Shown piece by piece: positions 24,224 through 41,180 of a stretch of 64,000 bases of DNA (position 1 is its first letter; every line of letters begins with the position of its first letter). The DNA lies in sequence record NC_103192.1; one strand, given 5' to 3'. A program made the translations under genes and the position numbers. The notes beneath the pieces are model-generated. The model worked only from the letters and a program-made list of their open reading frames with translations. It searched no databases and was not told where the DNA came from. Origin of the DNA: a phage.

Positions 24224-24267
24224 TGGGCAGGAATGGCGGCAAGGATGCTGCTTAAGGAGTAGTAGAG

Positions 24268-24537
24268 ATGTTATACCAGCAATATGAACTTCGTGCAGAA
24301 AAAGAGTTAAATTTTGACAAAGATATTCACAGATATTATTATGGGAAAGTTAGAGGGCAAGCAAGAAAGTGTACTCCAACACTCTTTTATGCCAGCAGAC
24401 GACTAGCGCCAGAAGAGGCAACAGCAGAAAGGGTTGCATATGGCTGGAGAGTTGCGTATGATATTGACAGATCCGATGTGATGTCTGTTTTGGAAAACTT
24501 TGAAAACACTTACACACAAGTAGAGGACTTTTACTAA
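24268..24537 (+). CDS. hypothetical protein
   Basis: 89-aa ORF directly coupled to the ATPase gene. Confidence 0.5.
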   Translation: MLYQQYELRAEKELNFDKDIHRYYYGKVRGQARKCTPTLFYASRRLAPEEATAERVAYGWRVAYDIDRSDVMSVLENFENTYTQVEDFY

Positions 24538-25721
24538 TGTCAAGAAACGTATTCGAAAGTGGTCAAATCACTGTCCGCGAGTTGCCAGCTATTATTCAAT
24601 TTGCCCAGCGTCATAACCGATCTGTCCTGATTTTAGGACCGATGGGTGTGGGGAAGAGCCAGGTGATGAAGCAGATTGCTGATAATATGTTCGGTGAGCG
24701 AGATGACAACCTGGTTGACGTGCGGCTGTCAGATAAAGATCCTGCTGACTTGTCTGGACTACCTATCCCTGTAGAGGCAGATGGAACTACACGCACAGTG
24801 TTTGCAATTCCAGAATTTTGGCCTGCAGACTCGGACTGGAGCGGAATTATCTTTCTGGATGAGCTTACTCATGCAGATAACTACCTGCAGAAGGTTGCAA
24901 TGCAAATTATGCTCGACCACAAGTGCGGCACCTATGCATTTCCTAAGGGCTCTGTTTTTGTAGCTGCAGGTAACCGTTCTACAGATGGTACGGTTCTTTC
25001 GGCGCTCGAAGCTCCTCTGGCTAACCGCTTTATCATTGTAGAAGTTACAAGCAATGCAGAGGTGTTTATTGAGGACTATGCATTCCTTAATGGGGTGCAC
25101 TCCTCTGTAATTGGATATTTGAAAAGAGTTCCATCAGCTATTGATAATTATGAGGCTATGGCTGAGATTAATTGTCCATCTTTTGCCACACCGCGATCTT
25201 GGGTTGCTGCATCTGATATCTTGCACGATTTTGACAGCGGTATTATTTCTGACGCTATGGCCCGTGTTCTTCTGCAAGGTGCTATTGGTCACACTGCAGC
25301 GGTAGAGATCTGGACTTACCACACCAAGAAACGCAATTTACCGGAAATCGGTCGGATTATGGCAGGTGGCTGCAAAGAATACGTAGGTCCTAAGCAGCCA
25401 GACATTTTGTGGATTCTTGGATCTGAAGGTTGTATCGCTATTCGTAATATGATGGAAAATGCAAGTATCTCAGACGAAGATCTTGTCAGCTGCGTGGCAA
25501 ACTTCCTCGATTTCCTTTGGGAAAACTTCAAGGACGAGAACCGAGATTTTGTATTCTCAGTCTTTATGGCGATGATGAAACCTAATGCCTTAGGAAATGC
25601 CTTGCTTATCGGTAAAGGGCGTGACAAGATTGTTGCTCAGCTGATCAAAGCATACCCAAACCTGATGAAGATTGTAAAAGAGTTTGGTGAAGAGTTTAGC
25701 GCCATTTTGGCTAAAGCTTAA
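24537..25721 (+). CDS. AAA+ ATPase, MoxR/CobS-like
   Basis: Walker A GPMGVGKS, Walker B IIFLDELTHA, sensor-like AAGN. Confidence 0.8.
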   Translation: MSRNVFESGQITVRELPAIIQFAQRHNRSVLILGPMGVGKSQVMKQIADNMFGERDDNLVDVRLSDKDPADLSGLPIPVEADGTTRTVFAIPEFWPADSDWSGIIFLDELTHADNYLQKVAMQIMLDHKCGTYAFPKGSVFVAAGNRSTDGTVLSALEAPLANRFIIVEVTSNAEVFIEDYAFLNGVHSSVIGYLKRVPSAIDNYEAMAEINCPSFATPRSWVAASDILHDFDSGIISDAMARVLLQGAIGHTAAVEIWTYHTKKRNLPEIGRIMAGGCKEYVGPKQPDILWILGSEGCIAIRNMMENASISDEDLVSCVANFLDFLWENFKDENRDFVFSVFMAMMKPNALGNALLIGKGRDKIVAQLIKAYPNLMKIVKEFGEEFSAILAKA

Positions 25722-26160: not shown

Positions 26161-26661
26161 GTGAAAATTAAAATCTTTGCTATTATTTTGAGCGCATTTT
26201 TATCGCTGCCTGTTGTTGCAGCACCCAAACAAAAAGTATATCACACCTGCAAGCCATCGGATACTAAGGAGAACATTCTGGCATGCAATATCTACAGGGA
26301 AGCCAGAGGAGATGGCACGATGGGTATGCTGGCATCAGGGTTTGCCACACTAAACAGGAAATCTCACCCCAAATACCCGGACACCATAAGAAAGATTGTC
26401 TACCAACCTAACCAGTTTTCGTGGACAAACCACGGCAAAACTTTTAAGGTGACAGAAAAAGATTCATGGGATCACGCTAAAAGTCTTGCAAAGATGCTTC
26501 TAAAGGTCTATAATAACAACCATGTTGCATACATGGCTATGGATATAACAGGTGGAGCAACGCACTATCATACAACAAAAGTACGACCGAAATGGGCAAA
26601 AAAGATGCAGAGGACAGCTCAATTCGGGAGTCATATCTACTACAAGGAGCGCAATAAATGA
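26161..26661 (+). CDS. SleB-type cell wall hydrolase with signal peptide (candidate endolysin)
   Basis: N-terminal MKIKIFAIILSAFLSLPVVAAP signal-like segment; NIYREARG motif of the Hydrolase_2 family; GTG start after GGAG. Confidence 0.7.
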   Translation: MKIKIFAIILSAFLSLPVVAAPKQKVYHTCKPSDTKENILACNIYREARGDGTMGMLASGFATLNRKSHPKYPDTIRKIVYQPNQFSWTNHGKTFKVTEKDSWDHAKSLAKMLLKVYNNNHVAYMAMDITGGATHYHTTKVRPKWAKKMQRTAQFGSHIYYKERNK

Positions 26662-28640
26662 TTGTAAACAGTAATGAAACTAAAGCAGTACTAACCGGAA
26701 ATATGGAGGTCACCAGGGGCTCAATTTCTCTGAACAAAGAGACTTTTGGGCTAATCATTAAAGGGATTTACGAAGATAAGGTGCTGGCAAGCTGCCGTGA
26801 ACCAATCTTCAATGCCGTGGACTCCCATGTTGAGTCTGGACGAGGTGATGTACCGATCATTATTCACTCTCCTACAGACCTTGAACCATACTTCTTTGTG
26901 CAGGACGTTGGATTGGGCATGTCAGAAGAGATGGTCCGCAACACTTTCATGAACCTCGGGGAGTCAACCAAGCGCAACAGCAACGCTCTGGTAGGTAATA
27001 AAGGTGTAGGTTCAAAGGCCCCGTTCAGCATGGTGGACACTTTCGATGTGATCAGTGTGCACAACGGTGTTGAAAGCACATATCTGTTGTTCTTGGATCA
27101 GGGTATCCCAAACGTTACCAAGATCCGCGAGCGGAAGACTGAAGAGCACAACGGGGTAAAAGTTCAGTTCCATGTTAAGAAAGAGCATGTCCTGAAATAT
27201 CGCACTGCTATTGCATCGTGCTTACGCTATGCGAAGTTTCCGTTCACCGTCACCGACCCTATGACCAGTAAAATGCTGGAAGGTGACAAGGTTGAGGCGC
27301 AGTATCACTACGAGAAAGATGGTTGGAAAATGACTATCCTAAAGGGCTATACCAGCTCTGACGAGAGTCGTGTGGTAATGGGGCACCAACCTTACCGATC
27401 TAAATTTCTGGAAACATTGACAGACTACCCTGCAATCTGTGTAGAGATCCCTATCGGGGATTGCAATATTAACCCAGGGCGTGAATGGACTATAGAGGGT
27501 CACGACGATGGTGGATTCCAAGAGCGTCTGGAGGCTTTTGTCAAAGAGGGTATCCGCCTACGTGGGGCAGAAGTTGTTGCGGAATTAGAGACAGCAAAAA
27601 CATCCTCAGAAGCACGCGAGATGATGAAGAACAGTGGAGTGTTCGGGCACATCTTCGGTAAAAATTTTATGTGGGAACGATGGGAAGAGACAGGACTAGG
27701 AAGCTTGGGAGATTGCGAGATCTTCGCTGGCGGCTTAAATAAAGGCCGTATAGGTTACGCCTGCTACGGAAAGGTAGAATTCTTACGGGGAGTCTATTTA
27801 GTATTTAACGACGGAGACGGCAAATATAACCGAAATAAGTGTAACTACTTAAGCGAGATCACCGGACGCAACGTTTTCTATTGCCGAAACACGGATCTGG
27901 TGAAAGAGTTTAAAGAGGCGGCACACCATCCTTTCTTTGCAGATACGGTCAAATTGTTATCAGAGCTCCCTCGCCGACCTGCGAAGAAAGGTGAAACAAA
28001 AACTCATTATGAGCCAGGCTATTGGGTTAAAAAACTTGAGAAGGATGGTTACTTCCGTCGTGAGCGTATTACTAAGGCAGAGTTCAAGAAGATTAAGCAC
28101 TGCATTCCTTATGAGGGTGATATCCAACGTGGAAGTTGTTGGCTGGGACAGCTAAGTAACATCTACCAGCAAAATTATGACCGTGTGCGTGCGGCACTCC
28201 AGATTCCTGAAGGGGAAGATCTGTACCTGGTATCAGAATCTCGTCTGCTTTGGACTGATCCTGATTGCCAGTATGTTACAGAGAAAAATGTGGAACATTT
28301 GTTGAAAGAGGACGCCTGGAAATTCTTACTGACTCGCGCAGCAAATGAAACTTCATATGACAGCCTGTATAGACAATTAGGGAAAATTATCCCCATGCAA
28401 GATTTTGGAAATTATCGGCCACATTTTCACAAGTGGGAAGGTAACACCGCGTGGAAGCACAGTGAGCTAAATCATCGTGCCAAAATCTTAATCGCCAACC
28501 GAGTCAAGTGCGGGAAGGCCTATATTGCAAGATTGGAAAAGAAATATCCACTTTTGAAGCATGTGGGCTTGAAATATTGGGACACTCCTGCTATGATTGA
28601 ATACCGTGAACTGATCGACGCAAAGAATAACACCAAATAA
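26658..28640 (+). CDS. rIIA: rIIA-like protein (GHKL ATPase fold)
   Basis: DVGLGMSEEMV and GNKGVGSKAPFS match the T4 rIIA ATPase motifs; immediately followed by rIIB. Confidence 0.75.
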   Translation: MIVNSNETKAVLTGNMEVTRGSISLNKETFGLIIKGIYEDKVLASCREPIFNAVDSHVESGRGDVPIIIHSPTDLEPYFFVQDVGLGMSEEMVRNTFMNLGESTKRNSNALVGNKGVGSKAPFSMVDTFDVISVHNGVESTYLLFLDQGIPNVTKIRERKTEEHNGVKVQFHVKKEHVLKYRTAIASCLRYAKFPFTVTDPMTSKMLEGDKVEAQYHYEKDGWKMTILKGYTSSDESRVVMGHQPYRSKFLETLTDYPAICVEIPIGDCNINPGREWTIEGHDDGGFQERLEAFVKEGIRLRGAEVVAELETAKTSSEAREMMKNSGVFGHIFGKNFMWERWEETGLGSLGDCEIFAGGLNKGRIGYACYGKVEFLRGVYLVFNDGDGKYNRNKCNYLSEITGRNVFYCRNTDLVKEFKEAAHHPFFADTVKLLSELPRRPAKKGETKTHYEPGYWVKKLEKDGYFRRERITKAEFKKIKHCIPYEGDIQRGSCWLGQLSNIYQQNYDRVRAALQIPEGEDLYLVSESRLLWTDPDCQYVTEKNVEHLLKEDAWKFLLTRAANETSYDSLYRQLGKIIPMQDFGNYRPHFHKWEGNTAWKHSELNHRAKILIANRVKCGKAYIARLEKKYPLLKHVGLKYWDTPAMIEYRELIDAKNNTK

Positions 28641-28650
28641 GGAGACAGCT

Positions 28651-29856
28651 ATGATTTTCATCTACGAACATTTCAAAACTCGTAAAGAAGCACGTGACCG
28701 CCGTGCAGAGCTTGAGAAGAAGGGTTTCACATGCGCTATTGAGAAAGGTAACACAACCTGGACACTGGCAGTGGGTGCCCCAGAGTTGTTCGATCCTGAC
28801 CGTGACAGCGTCTGCTACACCCGTGAGGATTTTGAAACCCGTGAAGAGGCCCGTTTATTTCGATATGGGCTGGAAGATAACGGTAAGTACGCCATGATCT
28901 TAGACTTAGGAGAAGGTTCCGTTAAACGTTGGGGCGTGGTATATCCGCTGTGTGTTGTTCACGGTGTAGGGTTCACTGGGGTAGCAATCAAGTCAGAAGA
29001 ACCTTTAGTAGAAGTAAAAGACCCGGTGCTGGAGGTGGTGAGCAGTGTGTCTCAGCAACAGACCCGAAGCATCGAGCCTTTGGTGGTTATTTGCGGAGAA
29101 CTCCTCCAGATCACCTGTAACGAAGGCATTTTTGAAATTCGCCGCAGTGAAAGTGAGGAAGTTTACCAGAAAGTTTTCGACCATATCTCTGTTCAGGAAT
29201 ATGATGAGGCAATTGGTGAAATCCTTGTCTGGCTGGAACGCAAGAATGAGTTCACCACACTTGCAGACAACCTGATCATGAAAGATGGCAAGCTCTACTA
29301 CTACGGTGTAGAGATGCGATCCACCATTGCAAAGAAAATTGAGAAAGATTATGCAGATGGAACACTGGATGACCGCTATGTGAAATTCCTCGTTCGCCTG
29401 CTACGCAATCCTTCTGCAAAATCTGTAAACATGCTCTACGATTTTATGCAGGCCAACGATATCCAGATTGCAGAAGATGGTCGAATCATTTGCTACAAAG
29501 GGGTTCAGTTTAACGGCAGCAAATGGGTGGATTGGCACAGTGGTAAAGTTCCACAATACCAGGGTGCTTTTGTATCCATGCCTCGTAACTTTGTAGAGGA
29601 TGATCCGGAAGCTGCGTGCTCCTATGGCTTACACTGCGCCAGCAAAGAGTATGCAAAGAGCTACGGCACTGTAATGATGGTTATGGTTGATCCTGCAGAT
29701 GTGGTTAGTGTGCCATACCAACACAATAGCGCTAAGTGCCGTGCATGCCGCTATGAGATTGTGGTAGCTCCGGAAGCACGCAAAGATGGAGACCCTATCG
29801 AATATGTAGTTGATCGTGACGGTAACACTATCGACATTCTTTACGAGGAGGCGTAA
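28651..29856 (+). CDS. rIIB: rIIB-like protein
   Basis: C-terminal half (YDFMQANDIQIAEDG...SYGLHCASKEYAKSYG...VDPADVVSVPYQHNSAKCRACRYEIVV) is collinear with the T4 rIIB C-terminal region as recalled. Confidence 0.75.
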   Translation: MIFIYEHFKTRKEARDRRAELEKKGFTCAIEKGNTTWTLAVGAPELFDPDRDSVCYTREDFETREEARLFRYGLEDNGKYAMILDLGEGSVKRWGVVYPLCVVHGVGFTGVAIKSEEPLVEVKDPVLEVVSSVSQQQTRSIEPLVVICGELLQITCNEGIFEIRRSESEEVYQKVFDHISVQEYDEAIGEILVWLERKNEFTTLADNLIMKDGKLYYYGVEMRSTIAKKIEKDYADGTLDDRYVKFLVRLLRNPSAKSVNMLYDFMQANDIQIAEDGRIICYKGVQFNGSKWVDWHSGKVPQYQGAFVSMPRNFVEDDPEAACSYGLHCASKEYAKSYGTVMMVMVDPADVVSVPYQHNSAKCRACRYEIVVAPEARKDGDPIEYVVDRDGNTIDILYEEA

Positions 29857-31226
29857 TGGAAAAAGGGCAGTATGATGTAGGCACAGATGCTGCCCTCGTT
29901 GCAATCATGAGTGGTGAGAATGTCTTCGTTTCAGGACCTGCAGGTTGTGGGAAGACGTATCTCATCAACATGATCCAGTCAATGTATGGAGACTCTTGCA
30001 TAACGGTTGCCCCGACAGGGGTAGCCGCTTTAAACGTTAATGGAGCAACAGCACACCGAACATTCGATCTTGCAGCAGGTGTGAGCATGGAGTCGGACTG
30101 GACCGCAATAAGGGCAAAAACAGCAAAGCCTTTGAAAAGCAAGGCATTTACCATCCTAATTATCGATGAAATCTCTATGATCCGTGCTGATAAGTTTATA
30201 GAGATGGATAGGAAACTCCGCTTCCTTCGAAAAAATGACAAACCTTTCGGAGGCATACAGGTCATATTGTTTGGCGATTTTTACCAGGCACCTCCTGTTG
30301 TCTCTTCTATGGAGAAGGAAGCCTACTTCAACTTCTACCATACGGACCTGTGTTGCTATACCGAATCTTGGAAAGAGCTTGACCTCCACAACATAGCCCT
30401 AGTAGATCAGTTCCGACAGGAGTCTATTCGATTTGCCACAATGCTCAACTGTGTTCGTGAGGGTCGTCGCATAAAAGAGGTTGTAGCAGAACTTAATGCT
30501 CGCTGTTACAAAGGCGGTGTACCAACAGACGCTCTCACAATTTGCGCTACCAACAAACAAGCGGAGGAAGTGAACAGAAGGTTCTATGATGCCATCAACG
30601 CCCCAGAGAAGGTATACACTGGTGAAATGAAAGGTAAGTTTCCCTCCACCCTGCCAGTTGAGCAGGAGATGAAGTTGAAAATTGGCATGAAGGTCATGAT
30701 AACCGCTAACGATGTTGACCCGACTCACAAAGTACCTTATTATGTTAACGGAACACGTGCCACAATTGTTAAATTTAAGAACAAGGCGGTGGTGGTAGAG
30801 CTTGAAGATGGAACACAGGTTGACATAGAGCAGAGGTTGTGGGAGAATAACGAGTATAAGCCATCTCAGAGATACAACATTGCAGAAAGGAAGATGGAGA
30901 AGTTTATAGAGAGGGTAGTGATTGGGTCATACAAGCAACTTCCTCTGAAATCTGGGTACGCCGTAACATCTCATAAAAGTCAAGGACTTACGCTAGATTG
31001 TTACAACCTAGACCTTGGAAAGAACGGGGCTTTCTCTCCTGGGATGACGTATGTTGCTTTGAGTCGAGTTAAGACAATACAAGGAATAAACTTGTTGCGT
31101 CCACTAAGAGAAGTTGACATTATTGTTGACCCGCGAGTCGTAGAGTTTTACAATACAACATTCCCTGACTTAGACAAAATTGTCAGGAAAGATTTTGAAA
31201 CCAGAACTGAAGAGGGGGACGTATGA
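29856..31226 (+). CDS. SF1B DNA helicase, Dda/RecD-like
   Basis: Walker A GPAGCGKT, Walker B IIDEISM, GDFYQAPPV, C-terminal TSHKSQGLTLD. Confidence 0.8.
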   Translation: MEKGQYDVGTDAALVAIMSGENVFVSGPAGCGKTYLINMIQSMYGDSCITVAPTGVAALNVNGATAHRTFDLAAGVSMESDWTAIRAKTAKPLKSKAFTILIIDEISMIRADKFIEMDRKLRFLRKNDKPFGGIQVILFGDFYQAPPVVSSMEKEAYFNFYHTDLCCYTESWKELDLHNIALVDQFRQESIRFATMLNCVREGRRIKEVVAELNARCYKGGVPTDALTICATNKQAEEVNRRFYDAINAPEKVYTGEMKGKFPSTLPVEQEMKLKIGMKVMITANDVDPTHKVPYYVNGTRATIVKFKNKAVVVELEDGTQVDIEQRLWENNEYKPSQRYNIAERKMEKFIERVVIGSYKQLPLKSGYAVTSHKSQGLTLDCYNLDLGKNGAFSPGMTYVALSRVKTIQGINLLRPLREVDIIVDPRVVEFYNTTFPDLDKIVRKDFETRTEEGDV

Positions 31227-31564: not shown

Positions 31565-31625
31565 TAAGATGTGAGTATAAAGGGGAGGCACTCCTCCCCA
31601 CAAAAACTAAGGAGAGCACCAAACG

Positions 31626-32951
31626 ATGAGTAAAACCAAATTAGAACTTACCTGGATAGGTAAAAACGAGCGCAAAAAGTTAGAGCCGCACATTTTGTTA
31701 GAAGATTCTAGCAAGTCTTACCACAGCCAGAAAGTGACCGAAAACGATATTTTTGATAATAAACTGATTTTTGGAGATAACTTATTAGCATTGAAGGCGC
31801 TAGAGCAAGAGTATGCAGGCAAAGTGAAGTGTGTTTACATAGACCCACCATTCAATACTGGAAGGGCTTTTGAGCACTACGATGATAGCCTTGAGCATTC
31901 CATTTGGCTGGGCTTAATGAGGGATAGGTTAGAAATAATTCGTAATCTTCTAAGTGATGATGGGGTAATATTCGTTCACTTAGATGATTGCGAGATGGCG
32001 TATTTAAAAGTTTTGATGGACGAGATTTTTGGTCGTGCAAATCAGTTAAATACCATATCGATGACCACAAATTCCCCTTCGGGATTTAAGGCAACAGGAG
32101 CCACAGTTTTCTCCACAGCAAACTTTTTGCTAGTATATGCAAAAGATCGCACCCAGAAACCGCTTAACAAAATCTATATACCTAAAGGGTATGATACAGG
32201 ATATAACAAATACCTATTAAACCCGGATGACCATTATAAAAATTGGACGTGGTGCGGTATTGCCGATGCGTTTGCAAAGGCCAATGGCTATAAAGATGCA
32301 AAAGAAGCCAAGAAAAAACTGCCTGATACATTCGATGATGAATTAGCACAATTCGCAATTGATAATGCAGAACGTGTATTTCAATCTGTTGCAATTGGCG
32401 GTGGTGCTAAAATAAAGAGAAAAGAAACTATCGAGAAGTCAAAGAAAGACAGGGATAAGGTTTATGTACATCCAAATGAAGATGTTGAAGGATTTTATAT
32501 CGCAAATGGTAGGCAAATGGTCTTTTACTCCAACAGGCTTTTGGAAATTGACGGTGAGATGCAACCTGCGGAACTAATAACTGATGTTTGGACAGACATT
32601 AGTTGGAATGGGATAGCAAATGAAGGTGGCGTTAGTTTCAAAAATGGGAAAAAACCAGAAGCGCTTTTGAAGCGAATTTTCGAAATGTGTACGCGAGAAG
32701 GTGATTTGGTATTGGATTCATTCGGTGGTTCGGGAACTACTGCTGCTGTAGCTCACAAGATGAAAAGACGTTGGATCTCAATCGAGCTAGGTGATCATTG
32801 TCATACCCATATTATTCCGCGCTTGGAAAAAGTGATCGATGGTGAAGATCAAGGTGGTATTTCTAAGTCTGTAAACTGGCAAGGTGGTGGTGGCTTCCGT
32901 TATTACAAACTTGCCCCGACCTTAATTGCGAAAGATAAGTCTGACCAATAA
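31626..32951 (+). CDS. DNA N6-adenine (or N4-cytosine) methyltransferase, beta-class
   Basis: catalytic motif IV DPPF (VYIDPPFNTG) precedes AdoMet motif I DSFGGSGTTAAVA. Confidence 0.8.
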   Translation: MSKTKLELTWIGKNERKKLEPHILLEDSSKSYHSQKVTENDIFDNKLIFGDNLLALKALEQEYAGKVKCVYIDPPFNTGRAFEHYDDSLEHSIWLGLMRDRLEIIRNLLSDDGVIFVHLDDCEMAYLKVLMDEIFGRANQLNTISMTTNSPSGFKATGATVFSTANFLLVYAKDRTQKPLNKIYIPKGYDTGYNKYLLNPDDHYKNWTWCGIADAFAKANGYKDAKEAKKKLPDTFDDELAQFAIDNAERVFQSVAIGGGAKIKRKETIEKSKKDRDKVYVHPNEDVEGFYIANGRQMVFYSNRLLEIDGEMQPAELITDVWTDISWNGIANEGGVSFKNGKKPEALLKRIFEMCTREGDLVLDSFGGSGTTAAVAHKMKRRWISIELGDHCHTHIIPRLEKVIDGEDQGGISKSVNWQGGGGFRYYKLAPTLIAKDKSDQ

Positions 32952-33270
32952 AGAGTACAATCAAATGATGAAACGTTATAAACCATACACTTTTGAAATC
33001 GATTTCGAACTTGACGATATGTTCACTGTGGAAGCTCAGGCAGTTGTCCAGTTGCCAGACCCAGAGTGCCGTGATTCTGATGTTGACTATTACGGATTTA
33101 GACAAATTACCGATGTGCATGTTTACCACAACGGTGAAGAGGTTGACTTTCACCAACTGCCAAACGATATGCGCCACTCAATTTACAAACGTGCAGCCCG
33201 TGAACTAGAGTCCTATCTGGATGCAGCGACGACAGCAGCTGCATTTGCTGAAGAAGTGGGAGGTTTCTGA
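32926..33270 (+). CDS. hypothetical protein (start uncertain)
   Basis: 114-aa ORF; alternative ATG at about 32965. Confidence 0.45.
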   Translation: MRKISLTNKEYNQMMKRYKPYTFEIDFELDDMFTVEAQAVVQLPDPECRDSDVDYYGFRQITDVHVYHNGEEVDFHQLPNDMRHSIYKRAARELESYLDAATTAAAFAEEVGGF

Positions 33271-33668
33271 TGATTACAGGTGTGAAGATTATCCAATACC
33301 ACTTAACCAAATTGGAAGATGCTGAAAAAGAGCTTGCAGAAGTTCTGAATAGTGGATATACTTTACTATCATGCGCCTGCTCAGACACCTACGTTGTGTG
33401 GACACTTATCCGGAAGGAAGAGCCTGCAGGGATCTTGGTGCCAAACCCTAAGATTATTAGTGAGGTGGATGACTATTCCCAGGACGGCCTGCCAGAAGGC
33501 TGGGAAGTATGGGAAGGTGGTGAAAACCCTGCACCAGGTAAGTGGGTAAAATATAAACTACGTAGTGGTGCACAGTACGCTGACTACTCTGATGACCTAG
33601 ACTGGAGTCATTCTTCACCAGGATCGTCTGCAAGTTCATATGATATCGTTGCTTTTCAGGAAGAATAA
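33270..33668 (+). CDS. hypothetical protein
   Basis: 132-aa ORF. Confidence 0.5.
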   Translation: MITGVKIIQYHLTKLEDAEKELAEVLNSGYTLLSCACSDTYVVWTLIRKEEPAGILVPNPKIISEVDDYSQDGLPEGWEVWEGGENPAPGKWVKYKLRSGAQYADYSDDLDWSHSSPGSSASSYDIVAFQEE

Positions 33669-33680
33669 GGAGATAGTGTT

Positions 33681-34163
33681 ATGTCAGATTTTATGTGGAA
33701 AGTAGGTTACGCAGCTCCTGAAATGTGTGAGGCTTGCTTTGTGAAAATAGGCCGCGAGGATATCGACAAAGTGATCCTTAAGTTTCGTGATGTGGCTGTG
33801 ATCGGCAACCGAGTGCTTAAGCACTTAAAGAATCTGAAGCTCACCAAAAAGAAGTTCTTCGGACTTTTCGAAGAGAAAGTCGATGCTTGGACCCATTGCA
33901 TTCAGGAAGCTAAATCTCACTACAGTGCTATCGTTACCCCAGAACGGGTAGCCAAGATGGAAGGATTTATCAACAGCACAGAGTTTGAGTGCTTAAAGGC
34001 GGCTCTTGATAGTTATCCAAAGTGCCTCAAACACCTTGACAAGTATGTGGAAAAGGATGGGGAAATGTATCTCACCCTGGACGCATACTATGAGATGCAA
34101 GAAATTTTAAATTTAGATTTGACATTGGTATCCACCGAGTATACAATAGGTATCCGGGTTTAA
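33681..34163 (+). CDS. hypothetical protein
   Basis: 160-aa ORF. Confidence 0.55.
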   Translation: MSDFMWKVGYAAPEMCEACFVKIGREDIDKVILKFRDVAVIGNRVLKHLKNLKLTKKKFFGLFEEKVDAWTHCIQEAKSHYSAIVTPERVAKMEGFINSTEFECLKAALDSYPKCLKHLDKYVEKDGEMYLTLDAYYEMQEILNLDLTLVSTEYTIGIRV

Positions 34164-34169
34164 CACTAG

Positions 34170-34196
34170 GCCCTGCCCGAAAGGGTGGGGCTTTTT
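34170..34196 (+). terminator. intrinsic terminator (repeated hairpin, copy 1)
   Basis: ccctgcccgaaagggtgggg (GAAA loop) followed by cttttt; near-identical copy at 46250-46277. Confidence 0.6.
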
Positions 34197-34214
34197 GCAT
34201 TAGGAGACAGCAAA

Positions 34215-34979
34215 TTGAAATTTATCTACAAAGAACACCACCACAAAGGTGTTGTGTGGAGTCTATTTGACGGGTCTGGTGGTGCAGTCATTGACTGGGC
34301 TAAAGCTGGGTATCTGTGCCTGTGCTTTAACGCAGAAGGTGCTGACCATGGTAGTTATGCAGAGGTGATAACCGATCATCCTAACATTCACTACGTTGAT
34401 TATTGGATTGACCCGTGGTTCCCTCAAGAAACTTTTTGCATGTACCCAGCTCCAGACTTTATTCTTGCATTTCCTCCGTGCACGCATTTAGCAGTATCAG
34501 GTGCTGCACATTTTAAGAAAAAGCTGGCTAAGGACCCTCTGATTCAAATTAATGCTGTAAAAGATGCTCGGGTTGCAGAAGAGTTGGGAGAGATTTACGA
34601 TTGCCCGTGGCATGTAGAGAACCCTGTAGGGGTTATGTCCACACTGTGGCGAAAACCTGATTACCGTTTTCATCCTTCTGATTATGGCGGGTATTTACCA
34701 GAAGATGATGTAAACCCGTGGTTTCCTGAATTTATAGCTCCACGTGATGCCTACCCAAAAATAACTTGCGGTTGGATAGGCAATGGATTTATAATCCCAG
34801 CCACAAAACCTGTCCCGCAAATAGTGGATGCGGTTAGTGGTTATTCTATGCAACACGCTAAGCTAGGTGGAAAGAGTGCAAGGACGAAGATGATTCGAAG
34901 CCTTACACCACGTGGCTGGGCAAGAGCTGTATTCTTAGCAAACGAGACTGTAGTAAGGAGCAGAATTAATGGGCAGTAA
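34215..34979 (+). CDS. DNA (cytosine-5)-methyltransferase-like protein
   Basis: motif I LFDGSGG, PC motif AFPPCTHLAVSG, ENV-like HVENPVG; TTG start 7 nt after AGGAGA, because the upstream in-frame GTG lies inside the terminator stem. Confidence 0.5.
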   Translation: MKFIYKEHHHKGVVWSLFDGSGGAVIDWAKAGYLCLCFNAEGADHGSYAEVITDHPNIHYVDYWIDPWFPQETFCMYPAPDFILAFPPCTHLAVSGAAHFKKKLAKDPLIQINAVKDARVAEELGEIYDCPWHVENPVGVMSTLWRKPDYRFHPSDYGGYLPEDDVNPWFPEFIAPRDAYPKITCGWIGNGFIIPATKPVPQIVDAVSGYSMQHAKLGGKSARTKMIRSLTPRGWARAVFLANETVVRSRINGQ

Positions 34980-37047
34980 ATTCATGGCATCTGCATATAA
35001 CCGCTATGGAGAGCCTAACCCAGTTGCAACAAGATACAAAAGCGGAGGCAGTATGAAACGAGACTATCGTGATGAAAAAGAGGTCGAAACTGTAGAAGCT
35101 GTTTTAGAAAATACTAAAATTGTCCCTGTTCCACAACAAAATATCGGACTGATGGCTGCACAATATTTTGGGGTGCGATCAGCATTGTCTCAAGAAGACG
35201 GGGTAACGGTCACTGCAACATATTTCCCATATTACGACCGCTACGGTAATCTATCCGGTTTCAAAAAGCGCGATTGGTCTAAGCCGAAAGAGCAGAAAGG
35301 GCACTGGTCTGTAGTAGGGATCGTGAAGGCCAGCTCCCAGATGTTCGGTCAAAAGCTGTGTGCATCCTCCAACAACCGTAAACAGATTAACGTTTGCGAG
35401 GGGGAGGGTGATGTTATTGCAGCATGGCAGGCTGCATATCAGATACAAGTAAAAGGGATTCTCACCAATGCTAAAGCCCCAGCGAAGGTGAAGCAGTGGG
35501 CTAAAGAAGTCCAGGATGGGATCGATGCAGTTATCAACGGCGGCGATCTGGCAGGAAAACCCTGCCTGCCTTTTGTTGGAATTAACTGCGGGTGTGCAAA
35601 CGCCGTAGACACTTTTGCGAACAATGAGAAATTTATCCGTAGCTACGGAACAGTGGTCCTTGCAATGGACAACGATGCAGCTAACGAGGTAGAGAAGCAA
35701 AAACACGTTATCAAAGGTGTTGAAGCCACACATAATATCGCAGCATTTTTGATGGCTGATAACGTTTACCACGTGGAATACCCAGGTGAGGTAAACGACC
35801 CTGATGGTGTAAAAGATATCCGTGACATGCTGAAGGCTAAAAAGCTGGAAGATATTGTCAACATGTTCCGTCACCCAGTCAAATATGTGCCTGATGCTGT
35901 ATCTGATTTAGAAGACTTCTCCATTGAATCTCTTCGTAAGAAGACTTCTAATGGCGTAGATATCAGTGCGGAGTTCCCTAAATTGCAGAAGATGCTGAAA
36001 GGACTCCACAAAGGCACCTTGATGATGCTGACAGGACCATCTGGTGGCGGTAAAACAACTGTAGCCAAGAAGCTGGAACACTGTATTGCAAGATACTTGA
36101 TGGATCCAACATGCCCTAAAGCTGATGATTATGAAGAGGATGATCGCCTGTGCCTGATTCACCTTGAAGAGGATCCAGAGGAAGCAATCAACTCTCTATA
36201 TGCTAACCAGTTAGGGTTTGATGTTAAAGAGTTTGTTGAAGACCCCAGTCAGTTCCTGACCGATCAGGAGCATGCTGAGATTCATCAATCTTGGGCCAAG
36301 GCCGGAAAAATCAAAGTGTTCAAACATTTCGGTTCTATCCCTGTAGATGAACTGATTACCAAGCTTAAACAAATGGTATGTCTGTATCATTGCCGTTACA
36401 TTGTGCTGGATCACCTGTCCATGGTGATTTCAGGGCTTAATGTTAAGGATGAGCGCAAAGAACTTGACATGGCTATGACTCAACTAGCCGCGTTCTGTAA
36501 GCAGTTTAATGTGTTTATCCTGGTGATTGCTCACCTGAAGCGCACAGAGATTGTACCTCCGAAGGATAAGGATGGAAATCCGTTACCTTTCTGGTACCCT
36601 GTACGAAAAGAGAACCTTCGCGGTAGTGCCGGATTGGAGCAACTTAGCTGGGTGGTTGTCGGGGTAGAGGCAGAGGAGATGGTGGATCGTTCCCGTGGAC
36701 GTGTCCGACTGGTAGGTCTTAAAAACCGCCCAGCAAAAACCTTAGGTATTGCAGACACTCTAGTTATGGATCCCCACACAGGCAAGTTCCATGATGCCAG
36801 CAACTGGTACTGGGACAAAGAAATGCAGATGTTTACAGACGGGGAAGGTGGGGAGGTTGTTTGGAGACCTCAGGCTATGTTTGAGGATCAGGAGCATGCA
36901 GTTGTAGAAACACCTGTGGGCAAGGTTGTGGCTGATAAGGTTATAACTCCTGCTGTTAACCCTGTTGACACACAGGAAGATCTTCAGTACGATGATCCAT
37001 CCTCTGACCCGGTCCCTGGTTTTGAGGATGATGAAACGCCTTTTTAA
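34969..37047 (+). CDS. bifunctional primase-helicase (Toprim + DnaB-like)
   Basis: Toprim-like CEGEGD, Walker A GPSGGGKTT, DnaB-type VLDHLSMV. Confidence 0.8.
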   Translation: MGSKFMASAYNRYGEPNPVATRYKSGGSMKRDYRDEKEVETVEAVLENTKIVPVPQQNIGLMAAQYFGVRSALSQEDGVTVTATYFPYYDRYGNLSGFKKRDWSKPKEQKGHWSVVGIVKASSQMFGQKLCASSNNRKQINVCEGEGDVIAAWQAAYQIQVKGILTNAKAPAKVKQWAKEVQDGIDAVINGGDLAGKPCLPFVGINCGCANAVDTFANNEKFIRSYGTVVLAMDNDAANEVEKQKHVIKGVEATHNIAAFLMADNVYHVEYPGEVNDPDGVKDIRDMLKAKKLEDIVNMFRHPVKYVPDAVSDLEDFSIESLRKKTSNGVDISAEFPKLQKMLKGLHKGTLMMLTGPSGGGKTTVAKKLEHCIARYLMDPTCPKADDYEEDDRLCLIHLEEDPEEAINSLYANQLGFDVKEFVEDPSQFLTDQEHAEIHQSWAKAGKIKVFKHFGSIPVDELITKLKQMVCLYHCRYIVLDHLSMVISGLNVKDERKELDMAMTQLAAFCKQFNVFILVIAHLKRTEIVPPKDKDGNPLPFWYPVRKENLRGSAGLEQLSWVVVGVEAEEMVDRSRGRVRLVGLKNRPAKTLGIADTLVMDPHTGKFHDASNWYWDKEMQMFTDGEGGEVVWRPQAMFEDQEHAVVETPVGKVVADKVITPAVNPVDTQEDLQYDDPSSDPVPGFEDDETPF

Positions 37048-37105: not shown

Positions 37106-40100
37106 ATGAGCATGTATAGCTTCGATTTTGAGGCCTCCGGGCTTTTGGAAGATCCAGATCTTTATTATCACTGCGGCCTGTTTAAAGAGCTGAATAAGAA
37201 CCGTTTTATGCTGTTCCTCCCTCTAAATGACCGCACACACTACTCCGAGGAGGATATAGAGAAGGCTAAGAACTTTATTCTGGCAAAGAAAACTCTTTAT
37301 AAAGATTTTGAAGTTCGCATAGCAGATTTTTCAGAGTTGGAAGGTTGGCTTACAGGCAATTCTGACTGGTCACCAACAGCTTTGAACTGCCATAACTGCT
37401 ACAGTTATGACTTTATGCTGATGGAGAGATTATCCGGTATTCATTTTGATATGTTCCGTGATCCTAAATGCATGGGTACTATCAACGATCACCAGGTTAA
37501 CCTGTTTGATACGTTGGCGATGAGCCGAATCTTGTGGCCTGATCGCCCTTTACCAAAAGGTTGCCCGGACGCTGTATTCAACCCGGTTACTAAGAAAATG
37601 CAGCCTGTTGGTCCTCACGGCCTTATGGCATGGGGCTACGCTCTTGGTAACCAGAAAGTTCAAATTGATGACTGGCGCGATCTTCCGCTGTGGAAGTATG
37701 TGGATCGTGTATTTGAGGACGTTATCATCCAGGAGCTGCTCTGGAAAGAGCTAGTAGCGGAATCAAAAGGTGTATTCTACGGCAAATCTGACATGCAGAA
37801 CTTCATGTATGACCCTGCCAAAGAGAAGCCTAAAGGATTCAAGAAGATTACCTGGAAGAATGCATTACGCCGAGGCATGCTGCAGCACTTCCTGATGGAG
37901 CTGCAGGCCCGTCAGGGTGTGTATTTCGACATAGATGGGGCTATTGCTTTACGTGACCGTTGCGATGCGTGGATGAAAGAGATCGCTGATCGTGTTGAAC
38001 CTCAACTCCCTTTAAAAGAGTTGTCAATATCTCAGCGGCCCAAGTTCCCTGAAAAGCCGTTTAACCAAGATGGGACAATCTCCAATAATGGTTGGAAATG
38101 GTTAAAAGATAAGCTTGGCTACCCTGTGGACATGAGCGCTTTAGATTTCAAAGCCCCACCTAAGCGAGCATTTACCTCCACAGGAGATGTCAGTAAGATG
38201 GGGATAAAATGGTGTGAAGAGATGGGCTGCAAAGACCCCGATAAGATGGCTGCTTTCTTGAGAGGCTATATTAAGGGCACTTCCACACCACAACCTTTAC
38301 CTAAAGAGCTGATGGATCAGGCAATAAGTGATCTACAGCAGAAGCGAATGCCTGACTGCAAGATACCTATGAAAATCAGCAATCAGGACGACATTAAGCG
38401 ATACCTGATCAGTGCTGGTTGGCTTCCGACAATGTGGAGAACTAAGGATGTAACTAAAGACAGCAAGAAGAAAGCTCTACCTGATGCAGATGTTGATGCA
38501 CGAGTATATGCATATATGGACGAGCTTTTAGAGTCAGAGTATTGTGACCTAATTATCAACTTCTGGAACAAAACTGATGCTAAGTTTCAGACAACAGTGC
38601 ACAAGTTCCGAAGCTTTCCTAACTCCGAAAGGATTAAAAAGGAAGTATTCGGGAAAATACGCAGAAAAGCTAGGGCACTTATTACTTCCCCGCAACTGAA
38701 AGATACGTTTGGACACCTATGCCCGAATCTTGAAAGATTGAACGGAGAGATGGCTAAAGATATCGTCTTGTGGTTATCATTGCGAAACCGCAGATCGGTA
38801 CTTGATCCAATCAAGGAGGATAAGGTTGATACTGGTCTTCTTAATCACCCACGTTTGAAGATTGACCATAAGCTTCCTGCTAAAAGCTCTGGATTAACAA
38901 ACACTTCCCGACAGAAACACAGTATTTGTGCAAACATGCCTAAACCATCTCCTAAAGTGGTTATGGGTAAAGAGATGCGTAGTCTGTGGGGTGTTCCTCC
39001 AGGATACTTTGAGATCGGTATTGACGGGTCTAACTTGGAGCAGCTTATCGGGGCTTGGGGTGCCTTTGAGTTCGACAACGGCCTGTATTACGATGTTGTA
39101 AGTAACGGCGATGCACACTGTTATTCAGGAGATACACAAATTCTCACGGAGAAAGGGTGGGTGAGGTTTGAAGATCTTGATCCGGGAACACAAGTGTTCC
39201 AGTACGATCACAACACCTCGTCGATGAACCTTGTTACTCCATTAAATTACGTTAAGCGTAGTTATTGTGGGGATATGTATCATTTCCACAACAGCGGTGT
39301 GGATTTTATGGTTACAGATCAACACAGGATGCTGACCGTGGATCACAGAAGCAATAAATTGTTTGAAGATTTGGCAAAAGACCTGAAAGCAGGTAAAGGG
39401 TCTAATTCAGGAAGAAGGTTTATCCATGCGGCAGAGTTTTATGGGAATACAACCTTATCTCCTGCCCAGGTTAATTTGCTTATTGCTATTCACGATGATG
39501 GGCACTTGCATACAAATAAGGACGGCAGCATCGTGTGCAGGATTCAGGTCGGGAAGGGCAGAAAAGTTGCAACGCTTTTAGATACTTTTTCTGCTCTAAG
39601 CCTTAGTTATGTAGAGCAGAGCGGGAAAACCACAAAAGGGGGCTTACTGGCGAGAAGGTTCCAATTCCACGTTCCGTCCTGGGTATTTGAGTTTTTGGAC
39701 AGCAATAAGGATTTCACCTACAACCTGATGGACCTTGATAAAGAATCTAAAAACCTGTTTATAGCTTCTTTATCTAACTGGGACGGGTGGGTATCTTCCG
39801 AAGGTGGAAAAGTTGCCTACTACTCTCAGGCCGAGTGCAGGAAGAAATCTGTAGAGGTTGTGTCTGCGCTGGCTACTCAGTGTGGTTTACGGAATAATAC
39901 GGTAGCGATTCACAAAAAAGGTCGTTCCGTACAGCACAGAATCACGATTGGTAGCAAACAGAGAGCAGGGTTGCTGACACTATCTAAAGAGTCTGTCGAG
40001 GTGAGCGGTTCTTTGGTTTATTGCGTTACCGTCCCTTCTGGAGCAATCATTGTGAGAAGGAATGGTAAAGTGGCAGTGTGCGGTAACTGTAATAACGCCA

Positions 40101-41180
40101 AAGCTTACTCTTCTGTAGCAGGCAAGGAGATTTCCCGTAACGATGGTAAGCCTGTCACGTACGGTGTTATGTACGGGGCACAAAAAGATAAAGTTGCAGA
40201 TATGCTGGACATCTCTCCAGAGTTGGGACAAAGGGTAATCGATGCGCTTTGGGATGCCAACCCCGGTCTTAAGGGGCGTAAAGAGGATCTGGAGAAATTC
40301 TGGGAAGCAACTGGTAAGAAGTTTATCTACTCTTTTGATGGTCATGCCATCTGGACCCGATCTAAACACTCTTTACTTAATGCATACCAACAAAATGGTG
40401 GTGCATCGTTGTGTGACTTAGTTGGGATACTCATGCACCACCAAATGGTGAAGCGTGGGTGGTACGATGAAGGTGTTCGCCGTATTATCTATTACCATAA
40501 ATAACATTGTGGCTTCGTGCAGTGATGCACGTCGAAAACCTCTTTAATTGACGGGAAGGCTAAGTTGACTTTTACACCTAAACATGGTAAAAGCTCGATA
40601 TGCTAATCCGCAGCGAAGCATCCGAGAGGATGAACGTTCAGAGACTATCGAAAGCATAGCTCCAGCATAGTTTGGTGTGAAGAAGCGAGTAGAGTAGGCC
40701 AGCAAGTGCGGTCGAAATGAGAGGTGCCTTGGTAACAAGGCAGTGAGATAGTCCGATCCATACGGGAAACTGTATGGCTATGCACGTAATGGTGCGGGGT
40801 AGCTTAACGACCTACCTGAACTATTGGATGAGTACCAACTTCAAGTACCTGACACACCGAAGTATAAGACTGTGTACACCTTCGACACAATCGAAGAACT
40901 GGAAGCATTTAAGGCAGAGCAGGAGGCCAAACTTCATGTGTTCGACGGTCATAAGTACAAAAAGGCACGCAAGGATGAGGACGGAAACGAAGTGGTTGAC
41001 AGAGACGGAAACACGGTGTACGATCCTATCCTGAACGATGACGGAAAGCTTGAACTTATCTGGAGCCCTGTGGGTGAAATGGTGGTGCATTGCTTCTGGC
41101 AAGCTTCTAAAATGATGGGCGTCCCATTCCAGATCACAGGTGAATACTTGTGTGGGGCTAATTGGGGTAGTTGTCACTAA
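37106..41180 (+). CDS. family A DNA polymerase, exons 37106-40498 and 40827-41180, containing an intein
   Basis: N-terminal exo motif FDFEASGL; motif A IDGSNLEQL; KPVTYGVMYGAQ (motif B region); HDE motif split across the intron (YYH | DEYQL); C-terminus GANWGSCH. Confidence 0.85.
39119..40087 (+). mobile_element. intein (323 aa) with LAGLIDADG-like homing endonuclease domain
   Basis: begins CYSGDTQILTEKGW (block A), block B TDQH, LAGLIDADG-like LLIAIHDDGHL and LFIASLSNWDGW, ends ...VCGN followed by Cys +1; extein flanks GDAH/CNNAK fit the family A pol O-helix region. Confidence 0.7.
40499..40826 (+). ncRNA. group I self-splicing intron (ORF-less)
   Basis: core elements P aattgacgggaagg (40546-40559), Q aatccgcagc (40605-40614), R gttcagagacta (40636-40647), S agatagtcc (40746-40754); 5' exon ends in U, intron ends in G; restores the HDE motif in frame. 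Confidence 0.8.

Follow-up and report, generated by a model that had tools for sequence, protein, structure and literature searches.

An orphan Type III Mod-like methyltransferase without the Res-contacting domain and a miniature C5-cytosine methyltransferase predicted in the replication module of an rV5-like Vequintavirus

Introduction

Orphan methylases carried by phages are a classic means of counter-defence. The sites recognised by known Type III systems are short, asymmetric and methylated on one strand. In the case of EcoP15I, which has such a short asymmetric site with one-strand methylation, Mod dimerises via its N-terminal and methyltransferase domains, and its C-terminal domain (aa 539-644) makes extensive contacts with Res (PMC4490356). 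On the side of the C5-cytosine methyltransferases, Dcm of phage K42 has been reported to raise 5-methylcytosine (5mC) on msDNA as determined by LC-MS, an effect lost in a C82A/E128A/K175A/K176A mutant, and to trigger retron Ec86 (Eco1); in that study the CCWGG site was assumed rather than determined, and only 5mC was looked for. A third described enzyme, CmoX of Synechococcus phage S-B43 (PDB 8yf3), is a Cx-SAM-dependent C5-carboxymethyltransferase of DNA cytosine, usually encoded with cmoA or cmoY nearby.

Adenine methylation of virion DNA has been described in Bas51, a sister phage of the one analysed here. Published nanopore data place N6-methyladenine (m6A) at 509-511 of its 516 GTAC adenines and at around 350 other sites, and the GTAC signal survives a knockout of the GATC methylase. 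GATC m6A is due to bas51_0176 (177 aa), which triggers retrons Asa1 and Squ1 and in which the escape mutations D69G, D79G and T83P are located, rather than in the Bas51 orthologue of the adenine methyltransferase gene described below. The Vequintavirinae have also been found to be 'exceptionally susceptible' to all six restriction-modification (R-M) systems tested, two Type III systems included (Maffei et al., 2021, PMC8594841).

Results and Discussion

Two methyltransferase genes in the replication module

The stretch of DNA analysed, referred to here as the window, consists of 64,000 nucleotides of sequence record NC_103192.1 and comes from an rV5-like Vequintavirus with around 94% identity to Escherichia coli phage V5. 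An earlier note on this DNA had placed two DNA methyltransferase genes in the replication module, next to helicase and primase genes, and this arrangement holds: ORF1 occupies positions 31626..32951 and ORF2 positions 34215..34979 (all features given in this work are on the + strand), and the pair is flanked by genes for a PIF1/Dda-like helicase (29856..31226; PF05970 at 9.2e-33; phrog_325) and a primase/DnaB-like helicase (34969..37047; phrog_239 at 3e-158; PF03796), the start of the latter overlapping the end of ORF2 by 11 nt, with a DNA polymerase gene beginning at 37106. In the GenBank records of related phages both genes are already labelled as methyltransferases. Three small genes lie between them (32968-33270, 33270-33668 and 33681-34163), belonging to phrog_4240, phrog_11995 and phrog_12900, all three without assigned function, and a Pfam search with their products returned no match; they appear as hypothetical proteins in the annotation of the BASEL phages.

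The E-values of the profile matches for the neighbourhood and for both ORFs are far beyond chance. From the evidence detailed below (sequence comparison, fold, intact motifs, the point of truncation and, for ORF1, purifying selection) we infer activity, target sequences and protective role, and we consider it likely that ORF1 and ORF2 are functional AdoMet-dependent orphan DNA methyltransferases acting on phage DNA after its replication. Taken together, there is little unusual about the two genes apart from one twist, a trimmed Mod derived from the host.

ORF1 is closely related to a host Type III Mod

ORF1 has an ATG start codon and its 441-aa product has the traits of a Type III Mod-like N6-adenine DNA methyltransferase. 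It matches Pfam PF01555 (N6_N4_Mtase) at 3.9e-42 and the curated PADLOC profile PDLC03636 (MTase_III) at 8.7e-206, over profile positions 2-444 of 575, and its best matches in a comparison with the PDB were Type III Mods (6k0w at 1.4e-28; EcoP15I, 4zcf, at 1.5e-24). The catalytic motif IV, DPPF (aa 73-76; 31842..31853), is found ahead of the AdoMet-binding motif I, FGGSGTT (aa 366-372; 32721..32741), which aligns to motif I of the EcoP15I and 6k0w Mods; this is the beta-class order, so that these motifs and PF01555 bear out the beta-class amino-methyltransferase proposed before. All catalytic and AdoMet motifs are intact and the target-recognition domain inserted between them is whole, as in Type III Mod cores; the beta-class core, DPPF, FxGxG and the inserted domain are common to ORF1, EcoP15I Mod and the E. 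coli Mod WP_024226319 (P0123).

With the latter protein (567 aa) ORF1 shares 425 of 439 residues over residues 1-439 (97% at the protein level). At the nucleotide level, homology to the mod gene on the E. coli chromosome extends from 13 nt 5' of the ATG to approximately host codon 450 (31613..32960; 93.8% by blastn of the window against L008), and megablast against complete E. coli genomes gave 94.9% over query positions 1-1318. The P0123 gene is located immediately 5' of a gene encoding a Res of 910-912 aa, which matches PADLOC REase_III at 8.8e-191, and of the 5426 complete E. coli genomes searched, 24-29 (about 0.5%) carry this host Type III system. Homology to the host ends around 10 nt beyond the stop codon of ORF1, which arose by a small deletion. 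Codon differences between ORF1 and the host gene amount to 49 synonymous and 14 non-synonymous, indicating purifying selection on ORF1. Judging from these comparisons, ORF1 is most likely a recent capture of the methylase of a host restriction system and, having retained its catalytic core together with its target-recognition domain, it would methylate the site of the host Mod.

ORF1 stops at a position corresponding to residue 439 of the host Mod and to residue 522, approximately, of EcoP15I Mod, that is, at the boundary of the Res-contacting C-terminal domain. It is distinguished from these Type III Mods by the absence of the C-terminal domain (around 128 aa), the one that contacts Res in EcoP15I. 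Furthermore, while the host Mod has a partner Res, the phage gene is part of a lytic replication module and not of a defence island, and no res gene (REase_III) was found among its neighbours, which are the PIF1-like helicase gene and small hypothetical genes. ORF1 can therefore be regarded as an orphan derivative and not as an R-M subunit. In an alignment of ORF1 with its 120 closest homologues (121 sequences in all), 16 are without the C-terminal domain, including one 85% identical to ORF1 that is encoded on another phage contig, at a different locus.

The most likely reading of this sequence evidence is that ORF1 is unable to bind Res and shields phage DNA from the cognate Type III system. 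Mod dimers made by the phage would methylate progeny DNA at the site of the host system, rendering it immune, and these dimers would not be drawn into the restriction complex, the Res-docking domain being missing. We also lean towards the more specific view that ORF1 is a purpose-trimmed, Res-free Mod dedicated to counter-defence and the source of one of the m6A motif classes of Vequintaviruses. The anti-restriction role suggested in the earlier note is thus supported by inference for ORF1, as a 97% copy of a Mod minus its Res-contacting domain, but not in the sense of broad protection, which is excluded by the susceptibility of Vequintavirinae to the six R-M systems (PMC8594841); any protection would be narrow and directed at cognate systems only.

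ORF2 belongs to a family of miniature C5-methyltransferases

ORF2 encodes a predicted miniature C5-cytosine DNA methyltransferase with a TTG start. A sigma-70-like promoter match (TTGACA-17-TACAAT, 11/12; a consensus match only) is located just upstream (34119..34147), followed by a G+C-rich hairpin and a T-run resembling a terminator, between the preceding gene and ORF2 (34168..34193). A longer version of the ORF, beginning at a GTG at position 34185, was rejected because this codon is inside the hairpin and the AGGAG Shine-Dalgarno sequence (34202-34206), 8 nt 5' of the TTG at 34215, serves the latter. The coordinates and start proposed previously are therefore right, although the length is 254 aa and not 255, a figure in which the stop codon had been counted.

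The motifs reported earlier, LFDGSGG, PPC and ENP, could all be located. The first is motif I (FxGxG AdoMet loop; aa 17-23; 34263..34283), which aligns with motif I of M.HaeIII and DNMT3B; the second is part of motif IV, FPPCTH (aa 86-91; 34470..34487), with the catalytic Cys C89 (254-aa numbering) equivalent to C82 of K42 Dcm; and the third is part of motif VI, ENPVG (aa 135-139; 34617..34631), whose Glu is equivalent to E128 of K42 Dcm. Near the end of the protein, the segment RSLTPRGWARAV (34896..34931) was matched by eye to what we take to be a motif IX-like element, following the canonical consensus R.LT.RE.AR. After this segment no motif X (GNxV) is recognisable in the sequence or the alignment, and in the place of motif VIII there is only RDAYPK(I/K)T and no clear QxRxR. 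Around 35 residues, in the place of the target-recognition region, precede the motif IX-like RSLTPRG-ARAV, and many family members end 5-20 residues after it. With respect to the canonical enzymes (M.HhaI, M.HaeIII, DNMT3A/3B), ORF2 also has PPCTH and ENP instead of GxPCQ and ENV, and is around 100 residues shorter. Its AlphaFold model (pLDDT 88) predicts a C5-methyltransferase fold, with DNMT3B/3A, CmoX, 3g7u and M.HhaI as best structural matches, which agrees with the previous description of a C5-type enzyme lacking a long target-recognition domain.

Searches of Pfam and NCBIfam with ORF2 gave no match, the PF00145 threshold not being reached, and PF00145 matched 16 of 29 relatives weakly (best, 1.3e-6). 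On the other hand, ORF2 aligns over residues 10-261 with phrog_757 ('DNA methyltransferase'), at 4.9e-87. It has more than 4000 homologues of around 225-260 aa, with the Cys, the Glu and other residues invariant, and conserves each of the 47 columns that are invariant in alignment A1, as well as the phrog_757 blocks CFN..DHG.Y, PPCT, ENPV, WRKP, YGGYLP.DD.P.FP, RDAYPK and KLGGKS.RTK.IRSLTPRG. The family comprises 934 clusters (50% identity) matching at E <= 1e-10 and was found in 1503 of 50,697 phage records, often beside helicase genes. In one relative, a fusion with a D12 Dam methylase is seen.

ORF2 is 54% identical, over its full length, to Dcm of phage KarlJaspers (Bas06), which is near-identical to K42 Dcm. 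They share membership in phrog_757, the catalytic Cys, the Glu, the first Lys, a similar size and the lack of a large target-recognition domain; they differ in the residue after PPCT (D in K42/KarlJaspers Dcm, H in ORF2), in K176 (Ile in ORF2), in around 10 extra residues at each end of ORF2, and in the type of phage, a 137-kb myovirus for ORF2 versus a 51-kb siphovirus for the KarlJaspers/K42-type Dcm. The PCTH sequence had been seen in the earlier note as a hint of a different base modification. We discard this idea, since the family consensus is PPCTD, with H replacing D only in the rV5 clade and the Cys invariant, mammalian DNMT3 enzymes have PCND at motif IV, and K42 Dcm makes 5mC; PCTH can be regarded simply as the form that the family motif takes locally. 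By analogy with K42 Dcm, and as part of the joint reading of the two genes, ORF2 is thus likely to make 5mC. As a member of this large, phage-specific family of C5-methyltransferases of around 230 aa, it would do so at a short site, presumably blocking cognate 5mC-sensitive nucleases, and the modification could expose the phage to sensors of the retron Eco1/Ec86 type.

Alternative explanations

The persistence of m6A in Bas51 without the GATC methylase implies the activity of one or more additional phage adenine methylases. There are two remaining candidates, bas51_0070, which is the orthologue of ORF1, and bas51_0200, a gamma-class-like protein of 272 aa with a GNPPF motif. Both bas51_0176 and bas51_0200 are, like ORF1, orphan adenine methylases from genomes of this type, but they are unrelated to ORF1 and ORF2 and encoded outside the window; they show that Vequintaviruses do methylate their own DNA. 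It is conceivable, if unlikely, that ORF1 is the enzyme behind the complete GTAC methylation of Bas51 virion DNA, being one of only two candidates for a signal that does not depend on the GATC methylase; we know of no GTAC methylase in E. coli K-12, which would count in its favour. However, a palindromic 4-mer would be an atypical site for a protein derived from a Res-linked Type III Mod, a single asymmetric 5-mer should occur around 275 times in 140 kb, which is close to the 350 or so other m6A sites, and bas51_0200 is an equally good candidate for GTAC.

A role internal to the phage, such as marking replicated DNA, timing of transcription or packaging, or mismatch and recombination functions, comparable to that of Dam in P1 packaging, could also be envisaged as the main one. 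This would be in line with the presence of both genes in the replication module, the overlap of ORF2 with the primase/helicase gene and the frequent proximity of its relatives to helicases, as well as with ORF2 being core to the genus and with the lack of protection of Vequintavirinae against the R-M systems tested (PMC8594841). We find it rather improbable, given that ORF1 is near-identical to a restriction Mod and is accessory, being present in 87 phage records versus around 115 for ORF2. It is also dispensable, as deduced from its frameshift in phage EmilHeitz and from the N-terminal truncation called in some metagenomic relatives, all of which fits a host-range gene and not an essential regulator. 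In addition, K42 escapers with Dcm deleted are viable, and nothing in this sequence analysis pointed to a regulatory site.

The EmilHeitz frameshift could be taken, along with ORF1 being shorter than all Res-linked homologues and with the homology break so close to the deletion-made stop, as a sign of decay, ORF1 then being an inactive piece of a host mod gene carried as a passenger after illegitimate recombination. This seems highly unlikely, since the motifs and target-recognition domain are intact, synonymous differences predominate, and the full 441-aa ORF1 is kept in 85 phage records at 97-99%. Moreover, the truncation coincides with a domain boundary that in EcoP15I leaves a self-sufficient Mod dimer (PMC4490356), and the form without the C-terminal domain recurs in another phage and locus.

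The proposal that ORF2 transfers a non-methyl group, for example carboxymethyl from the Cx-SAM made by host CmoA, as does phage CmoX, is the least probable of all: the similarity of FPPC in ORF2 to SPPC in CmoX, the restriction of the K42 study to 5mC, and a motif X that is unrecognisable in ORF2, so that the position of M.HhaI Asn-304, replaced in CmoX by the cofactor-selecting Arg, cannot be located and the cofactor cannot be read from the sequence, would allow for it, but the 5mC signal of K42 Dcm, the closest characterised relative of ORF2, depends on catalytic residues, CmoX has 17% identity to ORF2 and is not retrieved by a PDB profile search with it, the ORF2 model is as similar to ordinary methylases as to CmoX, and there is no cmoA or cmoY-like ligase gene among the neighbours of ORF2. 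The lack of motif X and of a target-recognition domain in the mini-Dcms leads to a broader idea, that phrog_757 members including ORF2 have relaxed sequence or structure specificity (hairpins, single-stranded replication intermediates) or accept an alternative cofactor, for instance the Cx-SAM made by the host. We regard it as very doubtful, and the counter-defence reading of ORF1 as more probable and less radical. If true, the use of Cx-SAM by ORF2 would mean a cytosine modification so far unrecognised in E. coli phages.

Concluding remarks

The capture of ORF1 is a dated event that pairs one phage gene with one E. coli defence system and can be directly tested. ORF1 is one of two candidate genes for the m6A of Vequintavirus DNA, which is complete at GTAC and extends to several hundred more sites. 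Since both kinds of methylase have relatives that trigger retrons, their benefit is accompanied by a cost, and this may help to explain the host-range patterns of therapeutic rV5-like phages.

Genomic setting of the two methyltransferase genes

Examination of the reading frames and their motifs, together with a Pfam match for the first, confirmed the presence on the plus strand of the two putative DNA methyltransferase genes that the earlier note had described. The product of ORF1 (31626-32951, 441 aa) presents DPPF (aa 73-76) before FGGSGTT (aa 366-372) and matches PF01555 (3.9e-42), and ORF2 (34215-34979) starts with TTG and encodes the motifs LFDGSGG, FPPCTH and ENPVG. A longer version of ORF2, starting at GTG 34185, appeared in a mechanical list of reading frames and was rejected: this GTG is part of a hairpin rich in G+C that is followed by a T-run (34168-34193), and it lacks a Shine-Dalgarno sequence, whereas AGGAG precedes the TTG at 34215 by 8 nt and the annotations of BASEL phages also place the start at this TTG, so that the product is considered to be of 254 aa. 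A sigma-70 promoter candidate (TTGACA-17-TACAAT, 11/12) is located in the interval 34119-34214, at most some 20 nt upstream of a strong terminator-like hairpin and T-run; a transcript from it would start just before the hairpin, and the Shine-Dalgarno sequence and TTG of ORF2 come after it. Termination of the upstream genes, attenuation or 5' stabilization are roles that the 34168-34193 hairpin might have.

The 6.1 kb around both genes show 94-95% identity to Escherichia phage V5 (rV5) and around 120 other Vequintavirus records. Both genes belong to known kinds, and annotations already exist for them in the genomes of relatives, those of BASEL phages listing ORF1 as 'putative N6 adenine methyltransferase' and ORF2 as 'Dcm-like C5 cytosine methyltransferase', in the order rIIA, rIIB, DNA helicase, both methyltransferases, primase/helicase and DNA polymerase, which is identical here. 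The rIIA-like (HATPase_c_3) and rIIB-like genes (26658-29856) immediately precede the helicase gene, an arrangement shared with other Vequintavirinae. Compared with its counterpart in phage RudolfGeigy, the DNA polymerase reading frame (37106-40504) contains an in-frame insertion of around 1 kb (39119-40115) with the ends ...H|CYSGDTQILT and ...VAVCGN|C; the insertion resembles an intein that includes a homing-endonuclease core. The whole frame gave no Pfam match at E <= 0.001, and its stop at 40504 is near the junction of the two CDS pieces that are joined in BASEL records. In addition, 13-16 GenBank records labelled 'Campylobacter phage' (MG065635-MG065682, host C. jejuni) share 94-99% identity with this coliphage region, and are probably mislabelled or contaminating coliphages.

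ORF1 is probably a trimmed copy of an E. coli Type III Mod

The nearest relatives of ORF1 with solved structures are Type III Mods (6k0w, 1.4e-28; EcoP15I Mod, 1.5e-24), and among PADLOC models 'Type III methyltransferase' ranks first (8.7e-206), aligned only over profile positions 2-444 of 575. In a set of 5.8 billion proteins, the close homologues, which share 60-77% identity and come from many phyla of bacteria, were almost all 560-600 aa long, and an E. coli Mod of 567 aa (P0123) was 97% identical to ORF1. Comparison with the E. coli gene by tblastn gave 425 identities out of 439 over residues 1-439, after which the phage protein stops (...KDKSDQ*) and the host protein runs on for another 128 residues. 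At the DNA level, homology to the host mod gene (93.8%) extends from 13 nt 5' of the ATG to position 32960, and the phage copy owes its stop codon to a small deletion. Codon differences between both genes are synonymous in 49 cases and non-synonymous in only 14, which indicates that ORF1 has been kept under purifying selection.

EcoP15I Mod consists of an N-terminal domain, a methyltransferase core (aa 62-262 and 390-516), a target-recognition domain (263-384) and a C-terminal domain (539-644); the dimer formed through the N-terminal and methyltransferase domains is a stand-alone methylase, and the extensive contacts with Res, the helicase-nuclease subunit, are made by the C-terminal domain of ModA (PMC4490356). 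Since the alignment of ORF1 to EcoP15I Mod reaches approximately residue 522, the phage protein retains all that methylation and recognition of the site require, the Res-docking domain being the only part that is missing. The product of the gene that follows ORF1 (32968-33270), which matches phrog_4240 (unknown function) and, weakly (1.9e-5), phrog_1573 'DNA methyltransferase', showed no similarity to the C-terminal domain that the host Mod has and ORF1 lacks.

Ends at the same boundary were found in 16 of 121 aligned sequences (ORF1 and its 120 closest homologues). One of these, a Mod devoid of the C-terminal domain and 85% identical to ORF1, is encoded in another large-phage contig (L019, 8001-9335; Logan SRR16894903), between phoH and clpP and beside a D12 Dam methylase, a location which indicates that the trimmed gene moves between loci or phages. 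ORF1 is present in 87 phage records, compared to around 115 for ORF2 (>95% identity), and in EmilHeitz (Bas49; MZ501062; L004, ~747-755) an additional T within a T-run near codon 43 causes a +1 frameshift, the orthologue being annotated as a 345-aa fragment. ORF1 thus behaves as an accessory, recently acquired gene. Several metagenomic relatives, among a set including P0127, P0129 and P0140, were called as N-terminally truncated; these and the EmilHeitz frameshift could be natural knock-outs of ORF1, or sequencing errors.

The host Type III system and the possible role of ORF1

The full-length E. coli mod gene, which 24-29 of 5426 complete genomes of this species carry, encodes a protein matching the Type III methylase profile (6e-284) and is directly upstream of the gene for a ResIII helicase-nuclease of 910-912 aa (PADLOC 'Type III restriction enzyme', 8.8e-191); in strain SMN152SH1 the two products are WP_024226319 and WP_024226320. 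The mod-res pair is part of a defence island at tRNA-Sec (L008, 3919-14464; also L014), along with a MADS-type HTH gene (mad1), a DrmD-like SNF2 helicase (9e-209), AbiD and AbiU/AIPR; AlpA, integrase remnants and IS66 border the island. Classification as MADS, MANTIS or DISARM, considered because of the HTH gene (NCBI 'mads1') and the adjacent DrmD-like SNF2, AbiD and AbiU genes, was discarded given the matches of both proteins to Type III profiles (6e-284 and 9e-191), and the pair was treated as a Type III system within a defence island.

Without its C-terminal domain, the phage Mod would be unable to recruit the host Res. Dimers produced by the phage probably methylate the adenine of the host recognition site on replicating phage DNA, and progeny DNA would then be immune to that one Type III system. 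The descent of phage orphan methylases from restriction-modification systems is established, as reportedly reviewed by Murphy et al. in 2013; in a non-exhaustive literature search we found no description of a phage methylase nearly identical to one particular E. coli Type III Mod, nor of trimming at the Res-docking domain. Protection from host restriction, as proposed in the earlier note, can be maintained for ORF1 with respect to the cognate Type III system, based on its derivation from a Mod, but not as a broad effect: Vequintavirinae have been reported to be 'exceptionally susceptible' to six out of six restriction-modification systems, including two Type III systems of other specificities (Maffei et al.; PMC8594841), so that protection would only be expected against cognate systems.

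Adenine methylation in the sister phage Bas51

A nanopore study from 2025 located m6A in virion DNA of Bas51 (WalterGehring; L007, MZ501111) at 1405 GATC, 509 GTAC and 576 other positions (PMC12548924). The genome of this phage, whose ORF1 orthologue is 99.5% identical at the protein level, has 703 GATC and 258 GTAC sites, which means that both motifs are essentially fully methylated on both strands. Three adenine methylases are annotated in Bas51; Vequintaviruses carry two adenine-methylase-like genes besides ORF1, the loci of which in Bas51 are 8091-8624 and 24069-24887. The ORF1 orthologue was rejected as the GATC methylase and trigger of retrons Asa1 and Squ1 (PMC12548924), because the mutated residues D69, D79 and T83 exist only in bas51_0176, the corresponding positions in the orthologue being C, G and E. 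The published GATC methylase and retron trigger is bas51_0176, a 177-aa protein with TNPPY, encoded outside the window and unrelated to ORF1. Also outside the window, bas51_0200 encodes an adenine-methylase-like protein of 272 aa with GNPPF, for which searches against Pfam and PDB gave no match.

Either the ORF1 orthologue or bas51_0200 must account for the methylation of GTAC, and perhaps for that of an asymmetric motif within the 'other' class. Given the origin of ORF1 from a Type III Mod that is linked to a Res, its site is probably asymmetric, and GTAC is an unlikely target. Observed/expected ratios of motifs in Bas51 (GTAC 0.49, GATC 1.32, CCWGG 1.1-1.45) point to the site of neither ORF1 nor ORF2.

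ORF2 belongs to a family of mini C5-cytosine methyltransferases

Direct searches with ORF2 against Pfam, NCBIfam, PADLOC and PDB, using the single sequence and a profile, gave nothing significant, and its identification required structure prediction and the literature. ORF2 strongly matches phrog_757 and has over 4000 homologues at 90% clustering, nearly all of 225-260 aa; when clustered at 50%, the matches (E <= 1e-10) amount to 934 clusters. The family was detected in 1503 of 50,697 phage records (Drexlerviridae, Dhillonvirus, Jerseyvirus, Vequintavirinae and others), often beside a helicase, and weak PF00145 matches were obtained for 16 of 29 members. A natural fusion, P0380 (563 aa), combines an N-terminal mini-C5 methylase with a C-terminal D12-class Dam methylase. 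The family alignment has 47 invariant positions, including the Cys of motif IV and the Glu of motif VI, and the specific blocks CFN..DHG.Y, WRKP, YGGYLP.DD.P.FP, RDAYPK and KLGGKS.RTK.IRSLTPRG. Only around 35 residues occupy the position of the target-recognition domain. By eye, RSLTPRGWARAV in ORF2 matches motif IX, the canonical consensus of which is R.LT.RE.AR, and nothing like motif X (GNxV) was seen C-terminal to it.

KarlJaspers (Bas06) encodes a full-length relative of ORF2, bas06_0055 (54% identity, 5e-87), whose numbering (C82, E128, K175, K176) matches exactly that of the 711-bp Dcm of the closely related phage K42. This Dcm was identified as the trigger of retron Ec86, a role cited by later work on retron Eco1, and its expression raised 5mC in msDNA as determined by LC-MS, an effect not seen with a quadruple active-site mutant; 5mC methyltransferase activity has thus been demonstrated for one member of the family. 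The CCWGG site of K42 Dcm was assumed by analogy with E. coli Dcm, the only probe being mutation of the two C's of one CCTGG in msDNA. A literature search for a 5mC methylome of a Vequintavirus found none.

The suggestion that PCTH in place of the canonical motif reflects a different base modification is not borne out. The family consensus in motif IV is PPCTD, with PPCTH found only in the rV5 clade, and DNMT3B has PCND, making PCTH a minor local variant. A precedent for such a modification is CmoX, a phage protein homologous to C5-methyltransferases that has the motif SPPC and Arg replacing Asn-304 of M.HhaI; it forms 5-carboxymethylcytosine with Cx-SAM, a cofactor that E. coli CmoA can supply. 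ORF2 carries FPPC, and among structural matches CmoX ranks second for it; however, ORF2 was not retrieved together with CmoX in sequence searches, there is no cmoA or cmoY among its neighbours and its characterized relative makes 5mC, so that a cytosine modification other than 5mC appears very improbable.

Overall, the interpretation advanced in the earlier note is partly supported. What the present analysis adds is the precise origin of ORF1 and its trimming, along with a possible link to m6A motifs other than GATC in Vequintavirus DNA.
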